This document shows positions 1 through 62,030 of a stretch of 64,000 bases of DNA, in pieces. Position numbers and translations under genes: made by a program. The notes beneath the pieces were generated by a model. It was given only the letters and a program-made list of their open reading frames with translations, made no database searches and was not told the DNA's origin. Origin of the DNA: Escherichia phage cardinal; sequence record PQ567651.1; one strand, given 5' to 3'. Within the stretch, counting starts at the first letter, position 1. Every line of letters starts with the position of its first letter.

Positions 1-472
1 TGTTGGCATTAGAATGGTCCCCATCATCAATTGTTTGCAAAACAATAGCAGTATCTGAACCAGAAACCATATTGTTATCAGAAATCAAGTGCCCCACATT
101 GGAACGCCACATAGTCACGTCACCAGCAGCCCCAGGAGATCCCAAAAATGTGCATCTCACAACATTACAATAACTTGAGTTATTTAGAAATACCGCCGAG
201 GCTTTATAGTTAGAAAACACACAATCTTCAATGCAACAATATGAGCATGTATCTAACCAAACACAAGAACCATTATATGTGTTGGTAGAACCTGAACTGG
301 AGGCAAGACGAGCATTAAAGATTTTGACACCTGTAACACCAGAACCATACAGCAAGGTAACTGTCGGTACATTGCACATCAAAGAAGACCCATTAATAAA
401 TTGTAGAGTCTGGTTATTAGTTTTCAAAGTTAAACGGGCTGATACTGTATATTTTTTAGAAAAATTACATCT
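1..472 (-). CDS. tailspike/tail fiber, C-terminal beta-helix portion (partial, runs off window start); same gene as 430..1023 but in the -1 frame
   Basis: My own translation of the minus strand of 1..472 gives an open frame reading ...KKYTVSARLTLKTNNQTLQFINGSSLMCNVPTVTLLYGSGVTGVKIFNARLASSSGSTNTYNGSCVWLDTCSYCC...SDTAIVLQTIDDGDHSNAN, a repetitive Gly/Asn/Ser/Thr-rich right-handed beta-helix-like sequence that follows the GDGVTDD motif of the upstream ORF. Confidence 0.5.
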
Positions 473-1023
473 TTACCTGAATCTAATGCCGCTTGTATCG
501 CGGTCAAGTCGTCAGTTACGCCATCACCCTTTGCACCATAAATTTCAGGGGTGACATAAGGTAGCTGGGTGGTGGCGTTCACCAAAACCCACGCACCCGA
601 CCCAACACCACCGGATGTTTCAGGGGTTGAGTCAGCGGGAACAGCTTTAGGGAAAGCACCACCCCATGTATAGCACTGTCCACCTGCAATATACCAAACA
701 GCATCCGTCTTATTATTTAATATAGCGCCATCTTCAAAGCTACCGTTGACAAGAGTTAACCCTGCCTCAGCAAGACTACGATGCCATAGTTCACGATCAT
801 TAAGAAGATTGTTATTCAACTCTTCCTGAACAGTATTACCATTTGAGGATTGTATTAAATCTGCTCCATTTGTATCTTTCAACTGGGTGGCTAAAACCAC
901 CCCAGTGTCAGCAAGAAAGTTGGAAACTGTGCTTTTAACAGTCTTATCAGGCTGGTCTAAAATCAGGTAATCAGAACCATTAACTTTTGATGTTTCGGGT
1001 AAATTAGTAATTGTAGTTGACAT
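430..1023 (-). CDS. tailspike/tail fiber, N-terminal portion with start of pectate-lyase-like beta-helix; interrupted by frameshift
   Basis: ORF track 197 aa; ends ...YGAKGDGVTDDLTAIQAALDSGKDVIFLKNIQYQPV*, carrying the GDGVTDDxxAIQAA signature of pectate-lyase-superfamily tailspikes, then stops 15 residues later. Confidence 0.6.
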   Translation of the reverse strand: MSTTITNLPETSKVNGSDYLILDQPDKTVKSTVSNFLADTGVVLATQLKDTNGADLIQSSNGNTVQEELNNNLLNDRELWHRSLAEAGLTLVNGSFEDGAILNNKTDAVWYIAGGQCYTWGGAFPKAVPADSTPETSGGVGSGAWVLVNATTQLPYVTPEIYGAKGDGVTDDLTAIQAALDSGKDVIFLKNIQYQPV

Positions 1024-1031
1024 TTTTACTC

Positions 1032-3191
1032 CTATATATAAAATTTTTGTGTTGTTACTAAATCTTCTCCAGATTTAGTGGCTAATGTAATTCCACTTAT
1101 GGTGGCAATCGTAACATTTACCTGTTTAAGAGTGATATCTTGCAAATAGCAATTCAAAGGCACATTACCCATATAAAAAACTTGGGATTTTGAATTAAGA
1201 ACAGTTATTGAATCATGCATTATTTGTGGATAAGCCCATATGTATTGATATAAACCAACAAACTTCTGGTCATTCAATACAATATTACCTATAATCATTT
1301 TCCACAAATATGTCCTATAGTTTGATTCAGGATCAAAGCCATATAATGGTGCTAGAGTTGCATCTGGAACAAACCCTGCAAGATAATGTATCTTATCATA
1401 ACTAAAACCTAGTTGCTCATTAGGTATTGTGATAGCGTCGAAAGATCTTTCCATCTTACCTTCCAACAACCAATCATAACATTCTGAACAATAAAAGTCA
1501 AAGTTTTCTGGGATATAATAATCTTTAGGGAAGTTAACAAATTCCATCATACCGTTACCTAAGATGGATGGTACAAATGGTAACAATGTAACTTTTGCTC
1601 CAGGATATGCTAATCTAGTATCTGTTGCAAATTTAGCAACACGCAGTCCTAATGTTTTAGACAGGAATGCATAATATTCATCATATGGTGTACCAGTTTT
1701 ATAATTCTTAACTGTACCAACATCTTGTGCATATAATCCAGTTTCATTATTAAATGCAACTTTGGTTGCATAATCATAAATACACGGGAGATTGGTAGCT
1801 GTGTTATACCACCACCACGGTTCACCAACCTGAATAATAACCGGAAGATCATTAGCAGCGGATATAGAAGCTATCTTATTTATTACACCTTGTAAATAAT
1901 TCATCCCTTCATCAATTGAAGGAGATAAAACATAACTTGGTGGCTCATAACCTGTAGCAGCCAGATTATCATTCCAAGTATGTTGTACCCATTCTACAGG
2001 ACACACTGTACTCATAAGTTCAAAACTTAAGGAGTTCATTACTGTGTAGCCCATAGCTTTTGCATTAGCGTGGAAATTATCAAACCAGGCTTCTGTTGCT
2101 GGGTTTAAATATTCTGTTCTGTTCAAAGTCCATTTATTAGATCCAGCATCCCAACTAAATTGATAATAGTGTGACATACCATTATAATGGTTAATCATAT
2201 CTCTATAACCTAATCTATAGGTGTTAGAAATAACTCGCTCCGGGGTTAGGTTATACATATCATCATAAGATGTACACATTCTTATGGTGTGTGCTGGAAC
2301 ATTTAAATTACCCATATTCATCATACTGTAACCAGTATCAGGCTCTAGTATGGTAAACTTAAAGGAAAGATCCATATTGTCTACAGGTATAACATCTTCA
2401 ATTTCTTGATACCTTGCGGAGATCAAGGAGAAGAACATATTATCTATCTGTGTAGTGTCAACAACAATATCATTTTCTGGCCCAGATTTTAAATTTGAGA
2501 AATCTAGTTTGATTGTTGCTGTCTTACCATCTTCTGAAACTTCTTCTGCATAAAAGTTTAGAGATACATAATGAACTGTTTCATCCTTCAGTGTCACTGT
2601 TAAGGATGGTATTAATTTTTCTTCTTTTAATCCAGGAACACCTTGACTAAGTTCCATTTTAAACCAAAGTTTCTCTTTACTTAAGTCAGAATGTTCTTGG
2701 TAGCCTAATCCTTTGTGATCATATTTATCGTAAGTTGACCAAATAATCCCAGCAAGACCAGCCACTGTCCTATTAACCATTCTTGCTGTGAAAGAATCAC
2801 CATTAGAGATAATAGAACAACTTTCTGTTGATTGAGAATCTATTGTCCAAAACTTAGGATCAAACATTCTAGACTTCACAACAGGCCAAGTTAGCGGGGT
2901 TGTATTCGATTGATCAGTCGTAATAACACAACGAATTTCTTCGTTGATCATCATGTTATTTTGACTTATGCTAGTAATCTCAAGAGTAAAATAAAGATCT
3001 AAAGAGTTTGCCGGACGTTCATATACATCAACCACTACAGTAGCAGAATCTGCATCAGAAGGGAACGTTACTGTTCCCTGTTTAGCTACATAATCTCTAC
3101 CAGCGACCGCCGTTCCATCGACGGTCTTATAGCTGAATGAACTGGCATTTACTCTCGTATTTCGAGTTACAGTAAAAATAGCCTGTTTCAT
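1032..3191 (-). CDS. tail fiber/receptor-binding-like structural protein with N-terminal Calx-beta-like domain
   Basis: 719 aa; N-terminus TVDGTAVAGRDYVAKQGTVTFPSDADSATVVVDV matches the Calx-beta pattern; lies between tailspike and baseplate genes. Confidence 0.45.
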   Translation of the reverse strand: MKQAIFTVTRNTRVNASSFSYKTVDGTAVAGRDYVAKQGTVTFPSDADSATVVVDVYERPANSLDLYFTLEITSISQNNMMINEEIRCVITTDQSNTTPLTWPVVKSRMFDPKFWTIDSQSTESCSIISNGDSFTARMVNRTVAGLAGIIWSTYDKYDHKGLGYQEHSDLSKEKLWFKMELSQGVPGLKEEKLIPSLTVTLKDETVHYVSLNFYAEEVSEDGKTATIKLDFSNLKSGPENDIVVDTTQIDNMFFSLISARYQEIEDVIPVDNMDLSFKFTILEPDTGYSMMNMGNLNVPAHTIRMCTSYDDMYNLTPERVISNTYRLGYRDMINHYNGMSHYYQFSWDAGSNKWTLNRTEYLNPATEAWFDNFHANAKAMGYTVMNSLSFELMSTVCPVEWVQHTWNDNLAATGYEPPSYVLSPSIDEGMNYLQGVINKIASISAANDLPVIIQVGEPWWWYNTATNLPCIYDYATKVAFNNETGLYAQDVGTVKNYKTGTPYDEYYAFLSKTLGLRVAKFATDTRLAYPGAKVTLLPFVPSILGNGMMEFVNFPKDYYIPENFDFYCSECYDWLLEGKMERSFDAITIPNEQLGFSYDKIHYLAGFVPDATLAPLYGFDPESNYRTYLWKMIIGNIVLNDQKFVGLYQYIWAYPQIMHDSITVLNSKSQVFYMGNVPLNCYLQDITLKQVNVTIATISGITLATKSGEDLVTTQKFYI

Positions 3192-3199
3192 TATTTTCC

Positions 3200-6076
3200 T
3201 TATTTGGTTACATCAACACTAATATCATTCATAGTTAGAACAGTTAGTGTTGGTATGTTACTATTATCCAAAATTGGTAAAGCGTTTTGAGGGTTTAGTT
3301 TACGATACAAGGCATATAAACCAAAACCACGTAATAGTTCTCCTGCATGGAAACCAAAGAACATTCCGTTATCTGAATCTGGGCGTGGTGCAACACTCCA
3401 GGAACCATTCATCGGATGGTTAGGGGAAAGCACAATATAGTTTTGCTGAATCAGATCAAAACATCTGTCTGCTACAATACCAATGTTTGGAATTTGTGAA
3501 TCATAACCTGCCAAGCCCATGATTGAACAACCCGCCATAAACAGTGCAGACATATGACTAGTAAAGTCATCTATAGGTGCAAGAACTGTACCATCTGGAT
3601 TAAAGATAGTTGGTGTTCTTCCATCATTATTGTCTTGGAACCATTTAAGGTAGTTGATCCAATTTTTACAAACGGTTACTAGTTTTTCAGGAGGTGTTTC
3701 TCCTCTTTGTACAAGTTCGTATACAGCATGACAAGCACAGTAGAATGCACGAGCTTCATAACCATCCCACGCTTTTTCATTCCAGTGTTTCATTGTGAAC
3801 GTATTTGGTTCACCGTATTTTCTTGCATCCCAACGATCCCACACATATGCTTGTGCCATAGGCCCAGGCATCACAGGATCAAACGTGTTATAAAACCACA
3901 TTTGAGCATCATACAAGAAATCAATACTGTTGTTTAAACGTGTCCAATCAATATCCCTACCTGCGAAACAGTATAAGGAAGGATACTGGTATCCTGGGTA
4001 TGGAATACCACGCCATCCATCGTATAATGCAGTGTTTGGGTCACTGATATTAGAGAATGGAATTATTCCTGGTGTGTAATTAAGACTATTTAACTTATAG
4101 TCAATAATAGTACAATCACCTAACTTAGCAGTATGAGGATTTGAAGCCTGTACAGTAATACGGAAGTACATGGTATAATCATCACCAGAAGATGACGAAT
4201 ATCTTTCAGGTACATCGTTAATACAATAGAAATCTATTGTTCCTGTTAAACCATTGACAGGAGCCGTATCAAGAACTAAATTTACCTGATCTACAGCAGT
4301 AAGATTTATTGCTGAAGGTTTAGGATCTGTTTCTGGATGATTAGGCTGGTAAGCACTTAACTTAAAATCAGAAGCTGATAAAGTCTTCGTACTCCATGCC
4401 CCTTGCGTTTTAGGCAGCATAGCCCACCATCTCCAACCTTGAGCATCCGTGATAGTCATGTTAAAGTCATCTTCATATGTTCTATATGTAATAGACTTAA
4501 CATTAGCTTTTGATGTAGGAGTTAACCAAAAACCAACAGTAACACCACCATCCGTATCCATTGATGCAGTAACAATCTGGTCATTATTAGTTCCAGCAAT
4601 ACCTGTTACATACTTATATTGTACCACAGTATTGTCACCCCAGTCAACAATAATTCGCGGATCTGCGATAATATATGTTCCACCACTTGGAGGGGTGCTT
4701 CTCATAAAGCTGGATAATGGAATATCCATGCTTGTCATATTAGCTGTACCCAGTGGTAAGCCACAGCGGTAAGTTACTGTGTTATTTTCATCTTTGGTCT
4801 TACTTAGTTCCAACTCTGGACGGAAAAGAATACCATGTCCTGCGTCATCTACACCTTGAAACTGAACTCGTAACTTAGAGTTCTGATCAACTTTAAACCA
4901 AATGGCTTGCTGTTCTAATGTTGTTTGAGCAGCAACATCTTGTCTAATAACAATATAGCCTAAAGTATCTCTTGAATATTTAGGTATTGCTGTAGATGGA
5001 TATGAATAATCGTAAGAGATGCCATCTGTAAACGGAATAGTTGCATATGTAGACTTACGGAAAAATTTATCAAACATATCAATGTTTGAGTAATCTTGAC
5101 ACACTAACAGTGAAGACTGCCAGCATAGCCAATATTTTCTTTCTCCTGTAATTTGGTACATCAGGTAATTAGCATCACACCACCAAGTTTCGGCATCTGA
5201 CGCATTATCCTGAAAGCCCATTTCTACCGGAACGTTAACTGGTCTGTTATGCCACATAGTGTTACGCTCCATTAAATAACCACCGTGCTCAACAGGGTTA
5301 CAAGTCGCGTAGTTAAATTTATATGTACCGTTTACAGAAGTATTTTTTAGTTGAACTGTTCCGTATTGAGATGTTGGAAAACCTTCTTCTAAGACATTTC
5401 CATCCCAGTCAACTTTACGTCCTAGACGATCAATGATCCAATCAACATCCCATTGATCTCCCTTCTTAGACCAATCTGTTGTACCATCTGCATTAACAGC
5501 ATATACTGTAGCGTTTACAGAGTTCCATCCTAGATTACCATTAAAAGCAAACCATGCTTTGTCAAGGTATTCTCCCCAATGAGGAGCACCATGAGGAATA
5601 ACTGTTCTACCGTTAGTCCACGTCATTAAGCTACCCTTAAAACCTCCGTGTGTAGGGTAGCCATCATCTGTAAGAGGATAGTGCGCAAGACGTGGTTCTT
5701 TACCGTTAATAATCCAGTTAGGGCGATATTTTGCTGGCGGATCGGGGATCGGTTGACCACCAAAGAAGTAATCTATATAGGCTTGCCAATATTTTTTAGC
5801 AGAGTCTAAATACTTTGTATCGCCGGAAGCCAGGTATGCATAAGCGCAACCAAGAATAAGCACGGATTGACCTTCTGTTGTAGCATCCCCGTTTGGTTGC
5901 CCTTCTTGAGCAGTCCAGTTTATAAAGTGTCTGTTATTAGCTAGAACGTTTTGTGGGTTTAATACATAGTGTTGCACTGTAGGATCTACAGTTAAACCTG
6001 TATTACGATCTAAGAACTGAATATGTCCATCGATCAGTTGAAAAACATTGTCAATTCTGTGCTTAATTCTTGACAT
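3200..6076 (-). CDS. large tail/baseplate-associated structural protein (possible tail fiber)
   Basis: 958-aa ORF in the tail module, no overlap conflicts; function inferred from position only. Confidence 0.45.
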   Translation of the reverse strand: MSRIKHRIDNVFQLIDGHIQFLDRNTGLTVDPTVQHYVLNPQNVLANNRHFINWTAQEGQPNGDATTEGQSVLILGCAYAYLASGDTKYLDSAKKYWQAYIDYFFGGQPIPDPPAKYRPNWIINGKEPRLAHYPLTDDGYPTHGGFKGSLMTWTNGRTVIPHGAPHWGEYLDKAWFAFNGNLGWNSVNATVYAVNADGTTDWSKKGDQWDVDWIIDRLGRKVDWDGNVLEEGFPTSQYGTVQLKNTSVNGTYKFNYATCNPVEHGGYLMERNTMWHNRPVNVPVEMGFQDNASDAETWWCDANYLMYQITGERKYWLCWQSSLLVCQDYSNIDMFDKFFRKSTYATIPFTDGISYDYSYPSTAIPKYSRDTLGYIVIRQDVAAQTTLEQQAIWFKVDQNSKLRVQFQGVDDAGHGILFRPELELSKTKDENNTVTYRCGLPLGTANMTSMDIPLSSFMRSTPPSGGTYIIADPRIIVDWGDNTVVQYKYVTGIAGTNNDQIVTASMDTDGGVTVGFWLTPTSKANVKSITYRTYEDDFNMTITDAQGWRWWAMLPKTQGAWSTKTLSASDFKLSAYQPNHPETDPKPSAINLTAVDQVNLVLDTAPVNGLTGTIDFYCINDVPERYSSSSGDDYTMYFRITVQASNPHTAKLGDCTIIDYKLNSLNYTPGIIPFSNISDPNTALYDGWRGIPYPGYQYPSLYCFAGRDIDWTRLNNSIDFLYDAQMWFYNTFDPVMPGPMAQAYVWDRWDARKYGEPNTFTMKHWNEKAWDGYEARAFYCACHAVYELVQRGETPPEKLVTVCKNWINYLKWFQDNNDGRTPTIFNPDGTVLAPIDDFTSHMSALFMAGCSIMGLAGYDSQIPNIGIVADRCFDLIQQNYIVLSPNHPMNGSWSVAPRPDSDNGMFFGFHAGELLRGFGLYALYRKLNPQNALPILDNSNIPTLTVLTMNDISVDVTK

Positions 6077-42058: not shown

Positions 42059-42086
42059 GCCTACCTACTCAGTTAGGTGGGCTTTT
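42059..42086 (+). terminator. rho-independent terminator/leader hairpin
   Basis: GCCTACCTA-CTCAGT-TAGGTGGGC followed by TTTT, immediately before AAGGAG and ATG at 42100. Confidence 0.5.
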
Positions 42087-45582: not shown

Positions 45583-45627
45583 TAAAGTATTATCGCTCCC
45601 ACAAATGGGAGCGTTAGAGGAGAAAAT

Positions 45628-47792: not shown

Positions 47793-47843
47793 AGGCTAAC
47801 GTTAGGAGAGCTATGCTCTCCTTAAAAGAGAGAAGGAGAATTT

Positions 47844-56456: not shown

Positions 56457-57109
56457 TGACAACAATTATTGCAACACGTAACAAAATTTTGTCTGACGGT
56501 AAGGTAACAGTAGGTAGTCGTGTAGACACTTTAAACTTCAAGAAAGTGCGTAAAATTGGGGACTACCTTGTTGGTGGTGCAGGACGTCTGTCTTCTATCC
56601 TGACTTTCTTTTCTTGGTTTGAACAAAACTTACAATGCCAGGCAGCACAAGAGACAATCCCAGGTTTGGTGATCCAGTCAGATCCCGATAAAGAAGATGA
56701 AGAGTTTGTGGCATTGGTTGTTCATCCAGATGGTAAAATTTATATGCACGAGGGTAATAATCCAACGCGAGCATATCCTTTAACTGAAGATTATTATGCT
56801 GTTGGTAGTGGGGCAGATTTTGCTTTAGCAGCTTTAGATGCAGGGGCAACTCCAGAAGAAGCGATGGAAGTTGCAAAACTGCGAGATGCTTTTTCCGGCG
56901 GTGAAACTTTTATCGAAGAGATCGAAGAACAACTGGAGTTAACAGCGGAAGATATTCTGAACTTCAGCAAGGAGCAACTAATTAGTATGCTGTTGACTGG
57001 TGATCCTGATAGCGATGAAGCTGAAAGTATTTTAGCAGAAATGAAAGAATCACAAGAAAAAGTATTGACAGTCTCTGAAAAACTTGATAAAGTGTCCTCT
57101 GATAATTAA
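56456..57109 (+). CDS. HslV-like N-terminal-nucleophile peptidase (proteasome beta-subunit homologue) with acidic C-terminal extension
   Basis: 217 aa; MTTIIATRNK...KKVRKIGDYLVGGAG...AVGSGADFALAALDAG aligns with E. coli HslV MTTIVSVRRN...KKVRRL...GFAGG...AIGSGGPYAQAAARAL as I remember it, including Thr2. Confidence 0.55.
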   Translation: MTTIIATRNKILSDGKVTVGSRVDTLNFKKVRKIGDYLVGGAGRLSSILTFFSWFEQNLQCQAAQETIPGLVIQSDPDKEDEEFVALVVHPDGKIYMHEGNNPTRAYPLTEDYYAVGSGADFALAALDAGATPEEAMEVAKLRDAFSGGETFIEEIEEQLELTAEDILNFSKEQLISMLLTGDPDSDEAESILAEMKESQEKVLTVSEKLDKVSSDN

Positions 57110-57117
57110 TCTAGTAT

Positions 57118-57139
57118 AAACCCCCTCAAGGGGGTTATT
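57118..57139 (+). terminator. rho-independent terminator
   Basis: AACCCCCT-CAA-GGGGGTTATT. Confidence 0.5.
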
Positions 57140-57149
57140 AGGAGGAGAT

Positions 57150-57578
57150 ATGTTACCAGTACCTGTAACCTTTGTAGAAAAAGCCTACTACTCTTTAGAA
57201 CAAAACTGTAAAAGAGCTAAAAATTTTATTGAAAGTTTAGCAGAACAGCGTTACACTGTATCTAAAAAGGGATGGTTCAGAACTTCACAATATTCAGTCA
57301 ACCCTTTCGGAGAAGTTCGTGTGTTGTACGGCAACACAGAAAATATCTTAGAAAGAATGTTAGAACTAGATAGGATCTCCTCCTGTGATTATCAACTGTT
57401 GAAATTTTACGATTTGTCAGAAAACTTTAAAAACTTTCTTGACGATTTATGTAAACGAAAAACAGAAGAAGATACAATACCAGTATCTATGGAAGAATTA
57501 ACGTTCTTAAGAGATATTATGGTTTTTGAAGAAGACCCTGAAATCACAAAAGAGGAGATTTTAAGTAGTGGCAAATAA
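57150..57578 (+). CDS. hypothetical protein
   Basis: 142 aa. Confidence 0.4.
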   Translation: MLPVPVTFVEKAYYSLEQNCKRAKNFIESLAEQRYTVSKKGWFRTSQYSVNPFGEVRVLYGNTENILERMLELDRISSCDYQLLKFYDLSENFKNFLDDLCKRKTEEDTIPVSMEELTFLRDIMVFEEDPEITKEEILSSGK

Positions 57579-58077
57579 GTATGATCGTCCACCAACTGAT
57601 TACTATCCTACTCCACAAAAATGTATAAATGCATTATTTAGTGTAATAGATTTTAATAACCTTAAAGAAGAAGGTTTTATTTTTGCAGAACCGTGTAAAG
57701 GCGCTGCTGCTGCAATTTATCAACATTTTCCAGAAGGATCAGAATATTGTGAGTTAGAAGAAGGGAAAGATTATTTTAACCACGAATGGCATACTAAGCC
57801 GGATATTATAATCACAAATCCCCCATTCAAACTTGCACTTGAGTTCTTGCAAAAGAGCTTAAAAGAAGCAGACGTTTGCATATACTTGTTGCGTCTTGGG
57901 TTCCTAGAGTCTATTAAACGAAGGGAATTCCATAAACAGAATCCACCAACAAATTTGATTGTTCTTTCTGAACGACCATCTTTTGTTGCAGGTGGTACTG
58001 ATAAGACAGCATATGCTTGGTACGTCTACGACCCAAAAAACAGGCTGGGTTTAACTCAACCTTTCTATTTTGTTTAA
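57568..58077 (+). CDS. small N6-adenine DNA methyltransferase-like protein (gamma-class motifs)
   Basis: 169 aa; DYYPTPQ...FAEPCKGAAA and IITNPPF (motif IV NPPF). Confidence 0.4.
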   Translation: MANKYDRPPTDYYPTPQKCINALFSVIDFNNLKEEGFIFAEPCKGAAAAIYQHFPEGSEYCELEEGKDYFNHEWHTKPDIIITNPPFKLALEFLQKSLKEADVCIYLLRLGFLESIKRREFHKQNPPTNLIVLSERPSFVAGGTDKTAYAWYVYDPKNRLGLTQPFYFV

Positions 58078-58321
58078 GAGGAGCATTTTTATGACCGAGA
58101 AATTTATTGTTACTATGGAACTCACCTTTGATGAAGAAGATTTTGATCTTCATGTATCAACTAAAGCAGATAACATTCACACAACACAGAGTGTTGCAAT
58201 CGCTATGTTCTTTAAACAAGCTATTGCAAAACAAGCTGAAGTATGTGCTGGTTTAGCTGTAGAGTATGCAGAAGTTGTCAAGGTTCTTGAAAGTGCTCGT
58301 AACGGCGATTGGGATGAATAG
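58070..58321 (+). CDS. hypothetical protein (frame stays open 67 codons past its TAG stop)
   Basis: 83 aa. Confidence 0.4.
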   Translation: MFKRSIFMTEKFIVTMELTFDEEDFDLHVSTKADNIHTTQSVAIAMFFKQAIAKQAEVCAGLAVEYAEVVKVLESARNGDWDE

Positions 58322-58528
58322 TGGCATACAATTACTATCTGGTATATTTTTAACGAAACTAAGAAAAAAGACACAGGAACTAATGTTTATGCGGAATCCG
58401 AAGAACACGCAAAAGCTATTGGTTCAGTGCTTCTTTCTAGAATAGCAGGTGAAGAAATTCCTGTAGAGGCTATCTTTGCAGAAGTTGACCCTAGTATTCA
58501 AGAGGATGGTATTACCACTACTTAACTG

Positions 58529-58557
58529 TTGACTTTAACATTAAGGTAGTGCATACT
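58529..58557 (+). promoter_or_regulatory. sigma70-like promoter TTGACT-N17-CATACT (weak -10)
   Basis: Read directly; followed by hairpin CCTGT-AACAGA-ACAGG whose 3' arm overlaps the SD AGGAGGG of the recombinase gene. Confidence 0.35.
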
Positions 58558-58582
58558 TCCTGTAACAGAACAGGAGGGTATT

Positions 58583-59245
58583 ATGAAGTTTGTACTATAT
58601 CATCGACTTTCTAAGAAGAAACAACAAGGCAACCAGTATGGTATAGAATCACAGGAAGCAGATATTCAACGCTTCCTGGATTCACAAGAAAATTATACTA
58701 TTGTAGGTAGCTTTGCAGAGTTTTATTCGGGTAAAGGCGATTGGAAGCAACGTAGAGAGCTTGTAAAAGCTGTTAATCTTTGCAAAGAAACAGGTGCTAC
58801 ACTTGTTGTTGCTAAGGTTGACCGTCTTGGACGTAACACAGCTTCTGTTGCAACCTTGTTAGAGATGATCAATGTACGAATAGCAACTATGCCCTCCGCT
58901 GAAAATATGATAATAAATATTTTAGCAGTTCTGGCAGAAGAAGAGGCTCGTGCAATATCTGATCGTGTTAAGAAGAGCCTTAAGGTAGCAAAAGCGAAGG
59001 GAACGCTTCTTGGTGCAGCAAACCCTAAATACAAAAGAACAGATTATAAGAAAACGGAAGAAGCAAAACGCTCAAGAGAGTTTGCGCTTTCTTTAAAAGA
59101 TTCTTTAGTTGCATACAGAGCTTGTAAAACGCCATATATGACGATTGCAAAGCATCTGAATGAATCAGGAAAGAGAACTATTCGTGGGAGTTTGTTCGAT
59201 GCCAAAGCGGTACAACGTCTTTGTGCAAAATTGAATATTAAATAA
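58583..59245 (+). CDS. serine recombinase (resolvase/invertase family)
   Basis: 220 aa; LYHRLSKKKQ (catalytic Ser region), VVAKVDRLGRN, C-terminal HTH. Confidence 0.7.
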   Translation: MKFVLYHRLSKKKQQGNQYGIESQEADIQRFLDSQENYTIVGSFAEFYSGKGDWKQRRELVKAVNLCKETGATLVVAKVDRLGRNTASVATLLEMINVRIATMPSAENMIINILAVLAEEEARAISDRVKKSLKVAKAKGTLLGAANPKYKRTDYKKTEEAKRSREFALSLKDSLVAYRACKTPYMTIAKHLNESGKRTIRGSLFDAKAVQRLCAKLNIK

Positions 59246-59254
59246 GGAGGAAAC

Positions 59255-59458
59255 ATGGCAGTTCAATCTTTTGAGGAGACTGTTAAAAAACAATTCCTAT
59301 CGAAGCGAGCGATGGTTGAATTTTTGCATTTTCTCGAAGTAGATAGGGTACTTATTGAGACTACACCAGATGGTAACTGGCAAGTCTCGTATATTGCCAC
59401 CAGGCATATCGTAGACAGTACGAAAGAAGAAAGTTCGGAAGTTACGGTTGCTAGTTAA
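59255..59458 (+). CDS. hypothetical protein
   Basis: 67 aa. Confidence 0.35.
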   Translation: MAVQSFEETVKKQFLSKRAMVEFLHFLEVDRVLIETTPDGNWQVSYIATRHIVDSTKEESSEVTVAS

Positions 59459-59469
59459 AGGAGTTAAGT

Positions 59470-60042
59470 ATGCGTTTAGCTTTTAACGGGAAGATAAGCA
59501 CAGCAAACATATTATCAGCCATAGGATTATTAGGTAAAAAATTCACACCTTTCAGTTTACCTGTTTGTGTAGATTTTGATCATGTATTTGATATTAATAA
59601 TCCTTCACGTTGTATCGCCAGAAGTAATATTGATAACCCAAGTGAAAATCTGTTTTATATTACTAAACCATCCCAGGCAATTTTGAATCAATGGGAAGCA
59701 GGTCTGATTAAACCAGGTAAATATTTTGCATTACTACCTTGTAAATCATTGGCTATAGAGGACAGTCTAAACTATGCAAACAATCTTGTTGTTACAGCAT
59801 TCATTGTCTCAGAAAAAGAAGAAACTGCGGCACTTGCAAACACTGTTAAATCTTTGTATGATGCTTTGGGTGTTACTTACACTACCTTCGTTTGTGAAGA
59901 TATTCCACATTGCGTTGAATTCGTGGTGAATGGTGTAACTGTATGTCGTGTAGAAACAACTCAAGACGAAGACGTTTTTATTACTGTAGCCGATGTAATA
60001 TCTGAACCTGTGTTTAGTTATGCAGTTTCATTAACACATTAA
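59470..60042 (+). CDS. hypothetical protein
   Basis: 190 aa. Confidence 0.4.
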   Translation: MRLAFNGKISTANILSAIGLLGKKFTPFSLPVCVDFDHVFDINNPSRCIARSNIDNPSENLFYITKPSQAILNQWEAGLIKPGKYFALLPCKSLAIEDSLNYANNLVVTAFIVSEKEETAALANTVKSLYDALGVTYTTFVCEDIPHCVEFVVNGVTVCRVETTQDEDVFITVADVISEPVFSYAVSLTH

Positions 60043-60052
60043 GGAGAAGGGG

Positions 60053-60379
60053 ATGAAAATAACGACAGAACAGGCTTTAATAGACAAAGGAAGGGAAATC
60101 TTAGAAAGTCATTTGGAGGATATTCAAAGGACTCCAGGGTATCTCGGCTGGCGTATACAAGAAGCCGTCGATTTTCTACCCCGTAAAAATAAAGAGATTG
60201 AAGTAAGATCTCTATTCCTCCTTGTTAAAGTAGATGGTGACGCTATATACAAAGATGTAGCGTCTCACATTGAACAAATAGAAGAAAAAGCCTACAAAGA
60301 ATTTGCAGATCTTGTTGTAGAACATAATATAGAAGGTAAAGTTAATATCTTTATACTTATGGATTTTGAGGAGAGTTGA
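60053..60379 (+). CDS. hypothetical protein
   Basis: 108 aa. Confidence 0.4.
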   Translation: MKITTEQALIDKGREILESHLEDIQRTPGYLGWRIQEAVDFLPRKNKEIEVRSLFLLVKVDGDAIYKDVASHIEQIEEKAYKEFADLVVEHNIEGKVNIFILMDFEES

Positions 60380-61121
60380 TGCTAGTATATCAAGAAATTA
60401 GTGTAAAAGATGATCAAGACCTGTTTATTATTGGTGATTTACATGGTTGCTTTGATTGTACCAGAAAGGTGTTAATACTTTAGGTATCCGAGATCAAGAT
60501 GTTGTTGTATCTTTAGGAGATCTTACAGATCGCGGCAAGCAGAATTTTCGTTGTGTTGTTGAATTCACCAGAAAGCTAAATCGTTATGGTATTCGTGGAA
60601 ACCATGAAGATATGATGATTAAAGGGTTGCTAGAAGGTGATAGACGATATTACGAATGTTGGTTTCAGAACGGAGGCCATACAGTTCTAGACGAGTGTGG
60701 AGAAGAGGGTGCAACTGCTCTTGCTTCGATGCTAGAAGATTTACCTGTTGTACTTGTTGTCAATTATCGTAATATGAAACTAGGCTTTATTCACGGTGGG
60801 TATCCTTCAGTTTTGGAACATTTGCCAATAACAGAAGTTTTGCCATTTTGTTTGAATATGAATAAAGAGCAAGTTTCTCGATTCACAGAATCTTTAATGT
60901 GGGATCGTGATATGATAGATTGCGCACTTGAAGGGATTCTTCTTCCTAGAGTTTCAGGAGTAGATTATGTATTTCACGGGCATTCTTATGTTCCTAAACC
61001 TGTGATTAGCAGTAATAGGGTATATATGGACACAGGATCTTGCTTCAATGGTAATTTAACCTTTGCATATTTTGATGATTCAAATACGTTACAATTTTAT
61101 TCTACTTTAGAGGAGGACTAA
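60379..61121 (+). pseudogene. Ser/Thr protein phosphatase (lambda PPase-like metallophosphatase) split by a frameshift near 60453-60483
   Basis: Frame 1 from ATG 60379 gives MLVYQEISVKDDQDLFIIGDLHGCFDCTRKVLIL* (GDxHG motif); the -1 frame continues ...YQKGVNTLGIRDQDVVVSLGDLTDRG...GIRGNHE... (GDxxDRG and GNHE motifs). Confidence 0.55.
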
Positions 61122-61441
61122 TGTATAAAATCACAATTAAAGAAACAGTAGGAGAACTTACGAAAGAAACTACTATTGAGACGGAAGATGTTGAGTTAGT
61201 CAAAGAGCTTTTATTTCCAAAACCAGAAATAAAAGATAATGATGAACAGTTGGATGAAGATAATGAGACAGCAAGGGATAAATGGAAGAAACAACTAGCG
61301 GAGATTTGGAAAAAGCCTGAAGTAACTCCTCCATTTGATCCTCGTAGACCTTATAATCCTTGGGAAATTGGAAGCCCTTGGTTTACGTACCCTATTACTC
61401 CAATTGTTAATCCAATTGTTACTCCCAATATTACTTGTTAA
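61121..61441 (+). CDS. hypothetical protein with Pro-rich C-terminus
   Basis: 106 aa. Confidence 0.4.
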   Translation: MYKITIKETVGELTKETTIETEDVELVKELLFPKPEIKDNDEQLDEDNETARDKWKKQLAEIWKKPEVTPPFDPRRPYNPWEIGSPWFTYPITPIVNPIVTPNITC

Positions 61442-61451
61442 GGAGAAAACC

Positions 61452-62030
61452 ATGAGCGATTTATTCTACACAGGTGTTGGTAGCAGAGATATTACAGACG
61501 AAGAATGGGATACTATGGTATCTGTTGCAAAATGGCTATCTACATGGTTCATTTTGCGATCTGGTAAAGCAGAAGGTGCAGATTCCGCATTTGAATGCGG
61601 GGTATATGATAGTGGGAACAATACAAAGAAAGAAATATACATCCCTTGGCTCTCGTTTAAAGGTAATGAAATAGAGGGAGAGGTTATTGTTCTTGACAGA
61701 CCAGATAGTGTAAACTATGCTCTAACCTTGCAATATGCAAAAGAATTGCATCCAGCTTGGGACAGATTATCTCAAGGTGCTAAAAAATTACATCAAAGAA
61801 ATATCCACCAAGTTCTTGGAAGAGACCTTGAGAATCCAAAACCATCTTGTTTTCTTTTAGCTTGTGCAAATACAGATAAAAATGGAGATCCTTTAGGTGG
61901 TACAAGAACAGCTTGGATGTTGGCTAAAAAGTTTAATGTCCCTTGTTTTAATATTCGAGGTAAAAGTAAAAAACAAATTTTCGAATTTATTAAGCCTATT
62001 TTAGAGGAGAATGGTCTTGTCCAGAAATAA
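61452..62030 (+). CDS. DprA/Smf-like Rossmann-fold (SLOG-type) protein, tentative
   Basis: ATG at 61452 after AAGGAG; YTGVGSRD...RSGKAEGADSAFECG resembles the DprA VGTR...SGxAxGIDxAAH pattern. Confidence 0.35.
   Translation: MSDLFYTGVGSRDITDEEWDTMVSVAKWLSTWFILRSGKAEGADSAFECGVYDSGNNTKKEIYIPWLSFKGNEIEGEVIVLDRPDSVNYALTLQYAKELHPAWDRLSQGAKKLHQRNIHQVLGRDLENPKPSCFLLACANTDKNGDPLGGTRTAWMLAKKFNVPCFNIRGKSKKQIFEFIKPILEENGLVQK

Follow-up and report, generated by a model that had tools for sequence, protein, structure and literature searches.

What use does a strictly lytic phage have for a site-specific recombinase, and what sets the amount of enzyme that it makes? The question is raised by a 64,000-nucleotide stretch of Escherichia phage cardinal (sequence record PQ567651.1), the whole of which is called the window here. 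A small serine recombinase is encoded in the window and is preceded by a hairpin that pairs with its Shine-Dalgarno (SD) sequence, and an earlier note on this DNA had drawn attention to both. The analysis suggests that the gene is an insulated unit, such that synthesis of the recombinase would depend wholly on transcripts from its own promoter, and that the enzyme may act at a single site on phage DNA. Taken jointly, these two claims are judged to stand at about even chances; the first is drawn from promoter geometry and from comparison among relatives, and the second is argued weakly.

The window belongs to a phi92-like lytic coliphage (genus Justusliebigvirus, subfamily Stephanstirmvirinae) and is about 99% identical to other phi92-like coliphages, with 55 phage records matching positions 57000-61000 at 95-99.5% identity. 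The orthologue in phi92 is gp053 (YP_009012384.1), a 99% identical protein with the RefSeq product name DNA invertase, which sits between gp054 and gp052 as in the window and has the same promoter and hairpin. The match in PHROGs is PHROG 125, again named DNA invertase. The gene is already annotated and is ordinary in kind. It is kept across a phage subfamily and beyond, in related phages with hosts in Escherichia, Klebsiella, Vibrio, Shewanella and Cellulophaga. Neither an experimental study of phi92 gp053 or its orthologues nor transcription start data for these phages were found in the literature. Two genome papers on related phages report the absence of a recombinase, despite the gene being there (PMC5374246; PMC10269720), and these phages are described as strictly lytic (PMC12210895; PMC5374246). 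When a strictly lytic phage has a site-specific recombinase gene, the gene is mostly passed over, or it is counted as a lysogeny risk when phages are screened for therapy.

Geometry of the hairpin and promoter

The gap between the upstream gene and the recombinase is 57 nt long and holds a promoter-like site of the sigma-70 type, 25 nt before the ATG. The earlier note, whose region opened at 58526, the base directly after the end of the upstream 67-aa gene and its stop codon, had described a perfect 5-bp hairpin with the SD sequence in its 3' arm. The placement of the SD sequence was right, and the whole AGGAGG is buried; the 5-bp stem (CCTGT/ACAGG) is present but is merely the core of an 8-bp stem, in which CUUCCUGU pairs with ACAGGAGG. 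The centroid structure has an energy of -11.5 kcal/mol. A terminator was ruled out, as no U-run follows the stem, and the hairpin region has no match in Rfam.

The 5' arm starts within the -10 hexamer and ends just before the transcription start, which is itself predicted. Because the arm overlaps the -10 hexamer and discriminator, transcripts from the recombinase's own promoter (start near 58564) should lack it and have a free SD sequence. Inclusion of the -10 region brings the predicted fold to -11.8 kcal/mol, versus -2.0 for the own-promoter transcript. No terminator is predicted on the plus strand from a promoter-like site at 57065 to the gene, so that read-through RNAs are expected and should fold. 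The earlier note had taken the hairpin to be a leader element with translational control; the burial of the SD sequence stands, but its place in the leader of the gene's own mRNA does not, given where the 5' arm lies. Judging from the promoter geometry, the hairpin would form only on transcripts arriving from upstream genes.

The proposed mechanism is that the SD sequence pairs, through the 8-bp hairpin, with the end of the -10 hexamer plus the discriminator. In RNA that reads through from the upstream co-directional genes the 5' arm would be present and the SD sequence buried, while RNA begun at the gene's own promoter would be open to ribosomes. The recombinase would be made solely from that promoter, which would then set its dose.

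Comparable devices are found in insertion sequences (IS). In the fold-back inhibition of IS10 and IS50, the ribosome binding site (RBS) pairs with sequence upstream of the element's own start, and externally started transcripts are silenced. This is reportedly the work of Davis, Simons and Kleckner in 1985 and of Krebs and Reznikoff in 1986. IS200 combines a terminator against impinging transcription with a stem-loop that sequesters the SD sequence (PMC4513863). The likeness is that the window RBS pairs with sequence upstream of its predicted own start, and that an upstream terminator serves as an alternative device in relatives. In contrast to the IS systems, the protected gene is a serine recombinase within a long phage operon rather than a DDE transposase at the end of an element, and the device is a predicted one. 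The promoter-embedded anti-SD sequence, backed by alternative insulating devices in relatives, is modestly new. As a simple rule, a promoter plus a hairpin would make one gene in a long operon blind to read-through transcription, a point of use to anyone who interprets phage transcription maps or engineers these phages.

Chance tests and comparison among relatives

The local fold has a z score of -2.1, and 5 of 200 shuffled sequences fold equally well. When the 6 discriminator nucleotides were replaced by genome-weighted random hexamers, the energy of the window hairpin gave P = 0.005, and the same test gave P < 0.05 in 10 of 16 distinct Justusliebigvirus-like sequences. In the near-identical genome of phage KMB37, the discriminator buries the SD sequence at only 1 of 31 predicted promoter-gene pairs, namely that of the recombinase; an SD-pairing discriminator as a general trait of this phage's promoters was rejected on that count.

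Promoters were compared among 17 distinct Justusliebigvirus-like sequences, Phapecoctavirus, KP13-16, 05F01 and several metagenomic lineages. A TTGAC(A/T)-17/18-xAxxxT site lies 24-34 nt 5' of the ATG in nearly every lineage examined; in lineage L011, where the -35 element is degenerate (TTGATT), the distance is 66 nt. The position of the promoter is conserved although synonymous sites are saturated, and spacers and surrounding bases have freely diverged. The related rV5 genome has been described as studded with sigma-70 consensus promoters (PMC3606486).

A duplex test was used to score how well the -10 hexamer plus 7 nt pairs with the RBS, with random 13-mers of that locus as the reference. 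It gave P <= 0.05 in 11 of 24 diverged lineage rows (P = 0.0015-0.04), where about 1.2 would be expected. Since the synonymous divergence (dS) is saturated, shared ancestry alone should not keep this complementarity. The pairing solutions differ in sequence, and each tracks the RBS of its own lineage (Table 1). The helices contain G.U pairs, and a C-A mismatch inside helices was not seen, a pattern that, as far as sequence comparison goes, agrees better with selection for pairing in the RNA than with selection for a palindrome in the DNA. A dyad serving as a DNA operator or crossover site was considered less likely, given that T opposite G is tolerated, that C opposite A was not seen and that the arms track the SD sequence of the lineage.

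Other lineages carry a different arrangement. In KP13-16 and the metagenomic contig L012 the complementarity is absent, but an intrinsic terminator lies directly before the promoter. In Shewanella phage 1/40 (L125, 1150-1185) a 14-bp terminator-like hairpin (z = -4.8) encloses the promoter, TTGACA-17-TAATAT, and is followed by a U-rich tract, such that read-through RNA would terminate at the hairpin and own-promoter RNA would not.

Several observations weigh against insulation by fold-back. Roughly half of the lineage rows show little or no complementarity. Among them are Phapecoctavirus (L002, L018) and the members of one Justusliebigvirus-like subclade (L005, L015, L021, L024), where a substitute terminator is lacking too. 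The register of the helix shifts between lineages, with no single consensus helix, and the evidence is thermodynamic rather than covariation. The fold-back argument depends throughout on a promoter predicted from sequence. Moreover, no terminator is predicted before 62793, so that the promoter probably also serves downstream genes and its conservation is not specific to the recombinase.

Two other accounts of the hairpin have to be set against fold-back insulation. A plain translational attenuator would place the hairpin on all recombinase mRNAs, whether these start upstream of 58556 or arise mostly by read-through, and would keep translation low or conditional. A stable hairpin with a buried SD sequence suits such an attenuator, the own-promoter start is predicted only, and L011 has an extra SD-burying hairpin inside the leader that is present on all transcripts. 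Nonetheless an attenuator is possible rather than likely, because the 5' arm takes in part of the -10 hexamer in lineages such as L009, L020, L023, 05F01 and L008, and those bases cannot belong to RNA started at that promoter, and because it leaves unexplained the terminator just before the promoter in lineages that lack the arm. The hairpin could also be a neutral by-product, in which a pyrimidine-rich discriminator chances to match a purine-rich SD sequence. The SD sequence is low in complexity, any CU-rich stretch pairs with it, the stems are short, and the hairpin is missing from about half of the lineages. Chance matching is improbable, however, in view of the low P values in 11 lineage rows despite saturated synonymous sites, the matching of different SD variants by different arms (L008, L011, 05F01) and the occurrence of the arrangement at a single promoter among the 31 in the genome.

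The recombinase protein

The assignment to the resolvase/invertase superfamily of serine recombinases in the earlier note is borne out by a match to Pfam Resolvase (PF00239) over residues 4-141, with E = 8e-22 and 78.3 bits against a curated cut-off of 23.3 bits; all 53 family members match the same family. The active site was defined as the Ser in a Y-x-R-x-S motif plus an Arg/Asp cluster (R8, S10, R45, D67, R68 and R71 in gamma-delta resolvase). In an alignment with gamma-delta resolvase and Gin, Y6, R8, S10, R57, D80, R81, R84, E121 and R128 are invariant or nearly so, the first seven being at least 90% conserved. By this alignment, the protein is an intact serine recombinase with every catalytic residue present. 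The ratio of nonsynonymous to synonymous divergence (dN/dS) is 0.03-0.10 in pairwise comparisons of lineages with 78-88% identical proteins, where dS is above 1.7 or saturated, and by that measure the open reading frame (ORF) is under purifying selection.

The AlphaFold model is confident, with a predicted local distance difference test (pLDDT) score of 88.8. Compared with gamma-delta resolvase and Gin, the catalytic domain lacks about 10 residues, between helix D and helix E. In the C-terminal part, 33 of the 53 family members match PF07508 (Recombinase), whereas the Pfam search gave no match at E <= 1 to HTH_7, the C-terminal helix-turn-helix of the Hin type. The protein is best read as a short serine recombinase composed of a slightly shortened Resolvase domain and the initial helical portion of the DNA-binding domain known from large serine recombinases (PF07508 type), and it is a member of a phage- and plasmid-borne subfamily.

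The window protein shares the catalytic fold, the Ser, Arg and Asp residues, a similar size (about 200 aa) and a C-terminal DNA-binding domain with gamma-delta/Tn3 resolvase, Sin and Hin/Gin. It differs from them in being only 26% identical, in having a C-terminal domain of the PF07508 rather than the HTH_7 type, and in that no res region, transposase or invertible segment lies beside its gene. The best structural matches are to the large serine recombinases Bxb1, phiC31, TP901-1 and SPbeta SprA, and the similarity continues beyond the catalytic domain into the start of the recombinase domain. In contrast to those proteins of 450-600 residues, the window protein is 220 residues long and has neither zinc-ribbon nor coiled-coil, and neither an attP nor a prophage state was found for the phage.

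A chimeric recombinase is encoded in Klebsiella phage 05F01 (L118, LC483177.1; 1408-2079), where a canonical Hin/resolvase-like catalytic domain (YKRVSTDQQ...) is joined to a C-terminal domain of the window type. The catalytic domain was swapped and the C-terminal domain kept, which suggests that selection retains catalysis together with that DNA-binding module. In phage Schickermooser (L117, NC_048196.1; ~1390-1700), the 5' 300 nt of the recombinase gene has many single-base indels relative to phAPEC8, and the annotation covers only the 3' part of the gene; this copy may be a pseudogene, or else the indels are sequencing errors.

Substrate and role of the enzyme

Repeats were searched in the window with a seed of 11, in the whole 148.6-kb KMB37 genome with 13-mer seeds, and over the whole genome at 23 or more matches in 26. 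The earlier note had proposed a genome-wide search of this kind for inverted repeats or res sites; these searches gave no candidate substrate and no inverted or direct repeat pair usable as recombination sites, although more degenerate sites would escape them. Apart from tRNA T-arms and Fur-box-like palindromes, they returned only terminators, stem-loop modules of early promoters and two matches in coding regions, which are read as inverted paralogous segments. No res-like region lies beside the gene, given that the upstream gap is filled by the promoter and RBS and the downstream gap is 9 nt, and no transposase gene is near. No repressor or attachment-site context could be recognised, in agreement with the earlier note. 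In 5,426 complete E. coli genomes, searched in near and distant DNA modes, neither the gene nor its 4-kb surroundings was matched. The lack of a repeat pair and of an E. coli copy argues against an inversion switch and against integration, but not against a single-site system, because only one site per genome is needed for the latter.

Homologues with about 35% identity over their full length are found on plasmids of 6-7 kb (WP_102906889.1 on pP18_i; WP_338431979.1 on pIITB3_2), beside rep/ParA genes. A rep/ParA neighbourhood is the usual setting of plasmid multimer resolvases. Both plasmids (L126, 7.3 kb, and L127, 6.4 kb, respectively) are small and non-mobilisable, and the homologue on pP18_i adjoins replication and ParA genes. 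These proteins, annotated as recombinase family proteins, have the same two-domain layout as the window protein; they differ in belonging to a plasmid replicon rather than a lytic-phage replicon.

By analogy with these homologues, the window enzyme may act at a single site in phage DNA, for multimer resolution or for cyclisation of a terminally repeated genome. Such resolution or cyclisation is the best guess, with roughly one chance in three; segment inversion or integration is less likely. Genome dimer resolution is, on the same plasmid analogy and only on it, the most plausible of the three roles that the earlier note had listed. A 342-bp direct terminal repeat has been reported for the genus, in phage BME3 (PMC12210895). 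The repeat maps about 20 kb from the recombinase gene, outside the window, and as a candidate site the region was set aside, with Fur-box-like palindromes and little else conserved. The sequence TTCCTGTAAC (58557-58566), which looks like the gix half-site of Gin, was likewise abandoned as a lead: no second half-site was found, and relatives whose proteins are 72-88% identical do not keep the sequence. The argument for this role is a weak one, made by exclusion, as no site was found, and by analogy with uncharacterised plasmid proteins, and the Schickermooser frameshifts, if real, would make the recombinase gene dispensable in that phage.

The main alternative to resolution or cyclisation is a target in host or competitor DNA, such as the chromosome, plasmids, prophages or satellites, where the enzyme might disable a defence locus or excise an element early in infection. 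That no site was found in the phage genome would agree with such a target, as would expression predicted from an early sigma-70-type promoter, the relocation of the gene between genera with its promoter in the manner of a moron (a self-contained accessory gene unit) and the retention of the C-terminal domain when the catalytic domain was swapped. It is nevertheless decidedly improbable, and a common host target is not obvious since related phages infect different genera. An invertase that flips a phage segment elsewhere in the genome, for example as a host-range or expression switch, is suggested by the names in PHROGs and RefSeq and by the distant similarity of the catalytic domain to Gin. 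The inversion switch, also raised by the earlier note, found no support and is very improbable. The C-terminal domain is not of the Hin/Gin type; at 23 or more matches in 26, the only inverted pairs in the 148.6-kb genome are terminators, Fur-box-like palindromes and the two presumed-paralogous coding matches; the tail-fibre genes are more than 50 kb away; and Justusliebigvirus and Phapecoctavirus genomes are collinear overall, although small inversions could escape notice. A scan of 55 related genomes for inverted segments with a 25-kb query is uninformative, as its summary counts mix in other genera.

An integrase for cryptic lysogeny or pseudolysogeny is hardly credible, and neither is a mobile-element remnant in decay. 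Small serine recombinases can be integrases in some filamentous phages, and the frameshifted Schickermooser copy would suit decay. Against both stand the absence of the gene and its surroundings from the E. coli genomes searched and the description of the phages as strictly lytic (PMC12210895; PMC5374246). The remnant suggested by the earlier note is further contradicted by the conserved catalytic residues, by the low dN/dS and by retention across the subfamily and beyond. Because the gene is intact, strongly constrained and unlinked to any prophage state, the label DNA invertase is unsupported, and so is the label integrase.

A broader and more speculative suggestion, which is rather doubtful, is that the gp054-like gene, the recombinase and the gp052-like gene are a genome-processing module of large virulent phages. 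In such a module, a miniature relative of the large serine recombinases would cyclise or resolve the genome at one site early in infection, or would rearrange host or competitor DNA. The dose would be critical, and at least three devices would have converged on promoter-autonomous expression: an arm in the discriminator that pairs with the SD sequence, a terminator placed before the promoter, and a promoter nested in a terminator. If a site is found, it would show what use a resolvase-like enzyme is to a lytic genome with short terminal repeats, and a very small serine recombinase could become available as a tool.

Genomic context and movement of the gene

The recombinase gene is set in a long co-directional block of early and nucleotide-metabolism genes. 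Genes for PhoH, an HslV-like peptidase and a Dam-type methylase precede it, and a phosphatase gene and a DprA-like gene come after it. The earlier note's description of a lytic gene set far from any tail-fibre genes is upheld. In KMB37 the recombinase is at 18.8-19.5 kb and the tail-fibre genes at 73-92 kb; by coordinate mapping from KMB37, the nearest tail-fibre genes would be at about 1-4,900 of the window, some 53 kb off. Genes of both small flanking families border the recombinase in Justusliebigvirus. Homologues of the upstream gene precede the recombinase in FKP3, L008, L011, KP13-16, L012 and 05F01, and homologues of the downstream gene follow it in FKP3, L008, L011 and KP13-16 (Table 1).

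In Phapecoctavirus 536P1 (L119-L121), the gp054-like and gp052-like genes are adjacent (119390-119797, minus strand), with no recombinase between them but a terminator-like hairpin, ATACTCCCTTTTCGGAGGGAGTAT. The recombinase gene, preceded by a promoter of its own, is at 103510-104175 on the plus strand, 16 kb away and thus on the opposite strand. The empty site, together with the presence of gene and promoter elsewhere, indicates that the gene moved as a promoter-plus-ORF unit. No att-like sequences were found at the junctions of the empty and filled sites in Phapecoctavirus, only similar RBS motifs.

On the metagenomic contig L012 (SRR7533044; 676-2673), the gp054-like gene and the recombinase come directly after a tailspike gene (Tail_spike_N / beta-helix), the only case seen of a receptor-binding gene adjoining the recombinase.

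Table 1. Features of the recombinase locus in the window, and pairing helices at the same place in related lineages
Feature	Position	Strand	Remarks
Upstream small gene, phi92 gp054 family	58322-58525	+	67 aa, ends ...ITTT; PHROG 15892; Pfam and PHROGs give no function
Sigma-70-type promoter (predicted)	-35 TTGACT 58529-58534; -10 CATACT 58552-58557	+	17-nt spacer
Fold-back hairpin	58556-58577	+	8 bp, one G.U; 6-nt loop AACAGA (58564-58569)
Hairpin 5' arm CUUCCUGU	58556-58563	+	final 2 nt of -10 plus 6-nt discriminator
Predicted transcription start	A58564 or A58565	+	inferred, about 7 nt past the -10 hexamer
Hairpin 3' arm ACAGGAGG	58570-58577	+	pairs with CUUCCUGU
Shine-Dalgarno AGGAGG	58572-58577	+	5 nt 5' of ATG, wholly within 3' arm; phi92 RBS annotated equivalently
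Serine recombinase gene	58583-59245	+	220 aa, ATG start; phi92 gp053 orthologue
Catalytic domain	~aa 1-141 (58583-59005)	+	Pfam Resolvase
Helical C-terminal DNA-binding domain (predicted)	~aa 159-216	+	model and family profile matches
Downstream small gene, phi92 gp052 family	59255-59458	+	67 aa; no Pfam or PHROGs family annotation
Helix in L008/L099, CUCCUCU/AGAGGAG			then U6, so also terminator-like
Helix in L020, AUACUCUCCUA/UAGGAGGGUAU			11 bp, extends into -10
Helix in 05F01, GACACUUCUA/UAGGAGUGUC			z = -4.2; -10/RBS fold-back
Helix in L011, AUCCUCUA/UAGGGGAU			UAGGGGAU is an unusual RBS

Other observations

Clusters of near-perfect palindromes, AATGATAATCATTATC, which are taken to be like the E. 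coli Fur box, are found in the non-coding early region of KMB37 (L116) at 135015-135091, 146132, 147097 and 147292. Palindromes of the same type are also present in 536P1 at 82.5 and 93-94 kb, and none is in the window. Some of them fall in the stretch that has been reported as the direct terminal repeat of phage BME3.

In KMB37, at about 136000-145200, a promoter-like sequence followed by a stem-loop, GGGCGGGAAATGGTTTCCCGCC, occurs in at least 6 copies before small immediate-early genes. Three more predicted promoters in the window are followed by strong hairpins on the plus strand, at ~45594-45613 (CGCTCCCACAAATGGGAGCG), ~42059-42081 (GCCTACCTA...TAGGTGGGC, then TTTT) and ~47804-47822 (AGGAGAGCTATGCTCTCCT). 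The first two of these hairpins start right after the -10 element and the third about 11 nt later, and none buries an SD sequence.

A 20-nt sequence, AAGGAGAAAACCATGAGCGA, that consists of an RBS plus a start codon occurs twice in the window without mismatch, at 27848-27867 and 61440-61459, which is far above chance in 64 kb. Recurring T-arm sequences on the minus strand at 26900-29700 mark a tRNA gene cluster, and near-identical genomes annotate tRNAs equivalently.

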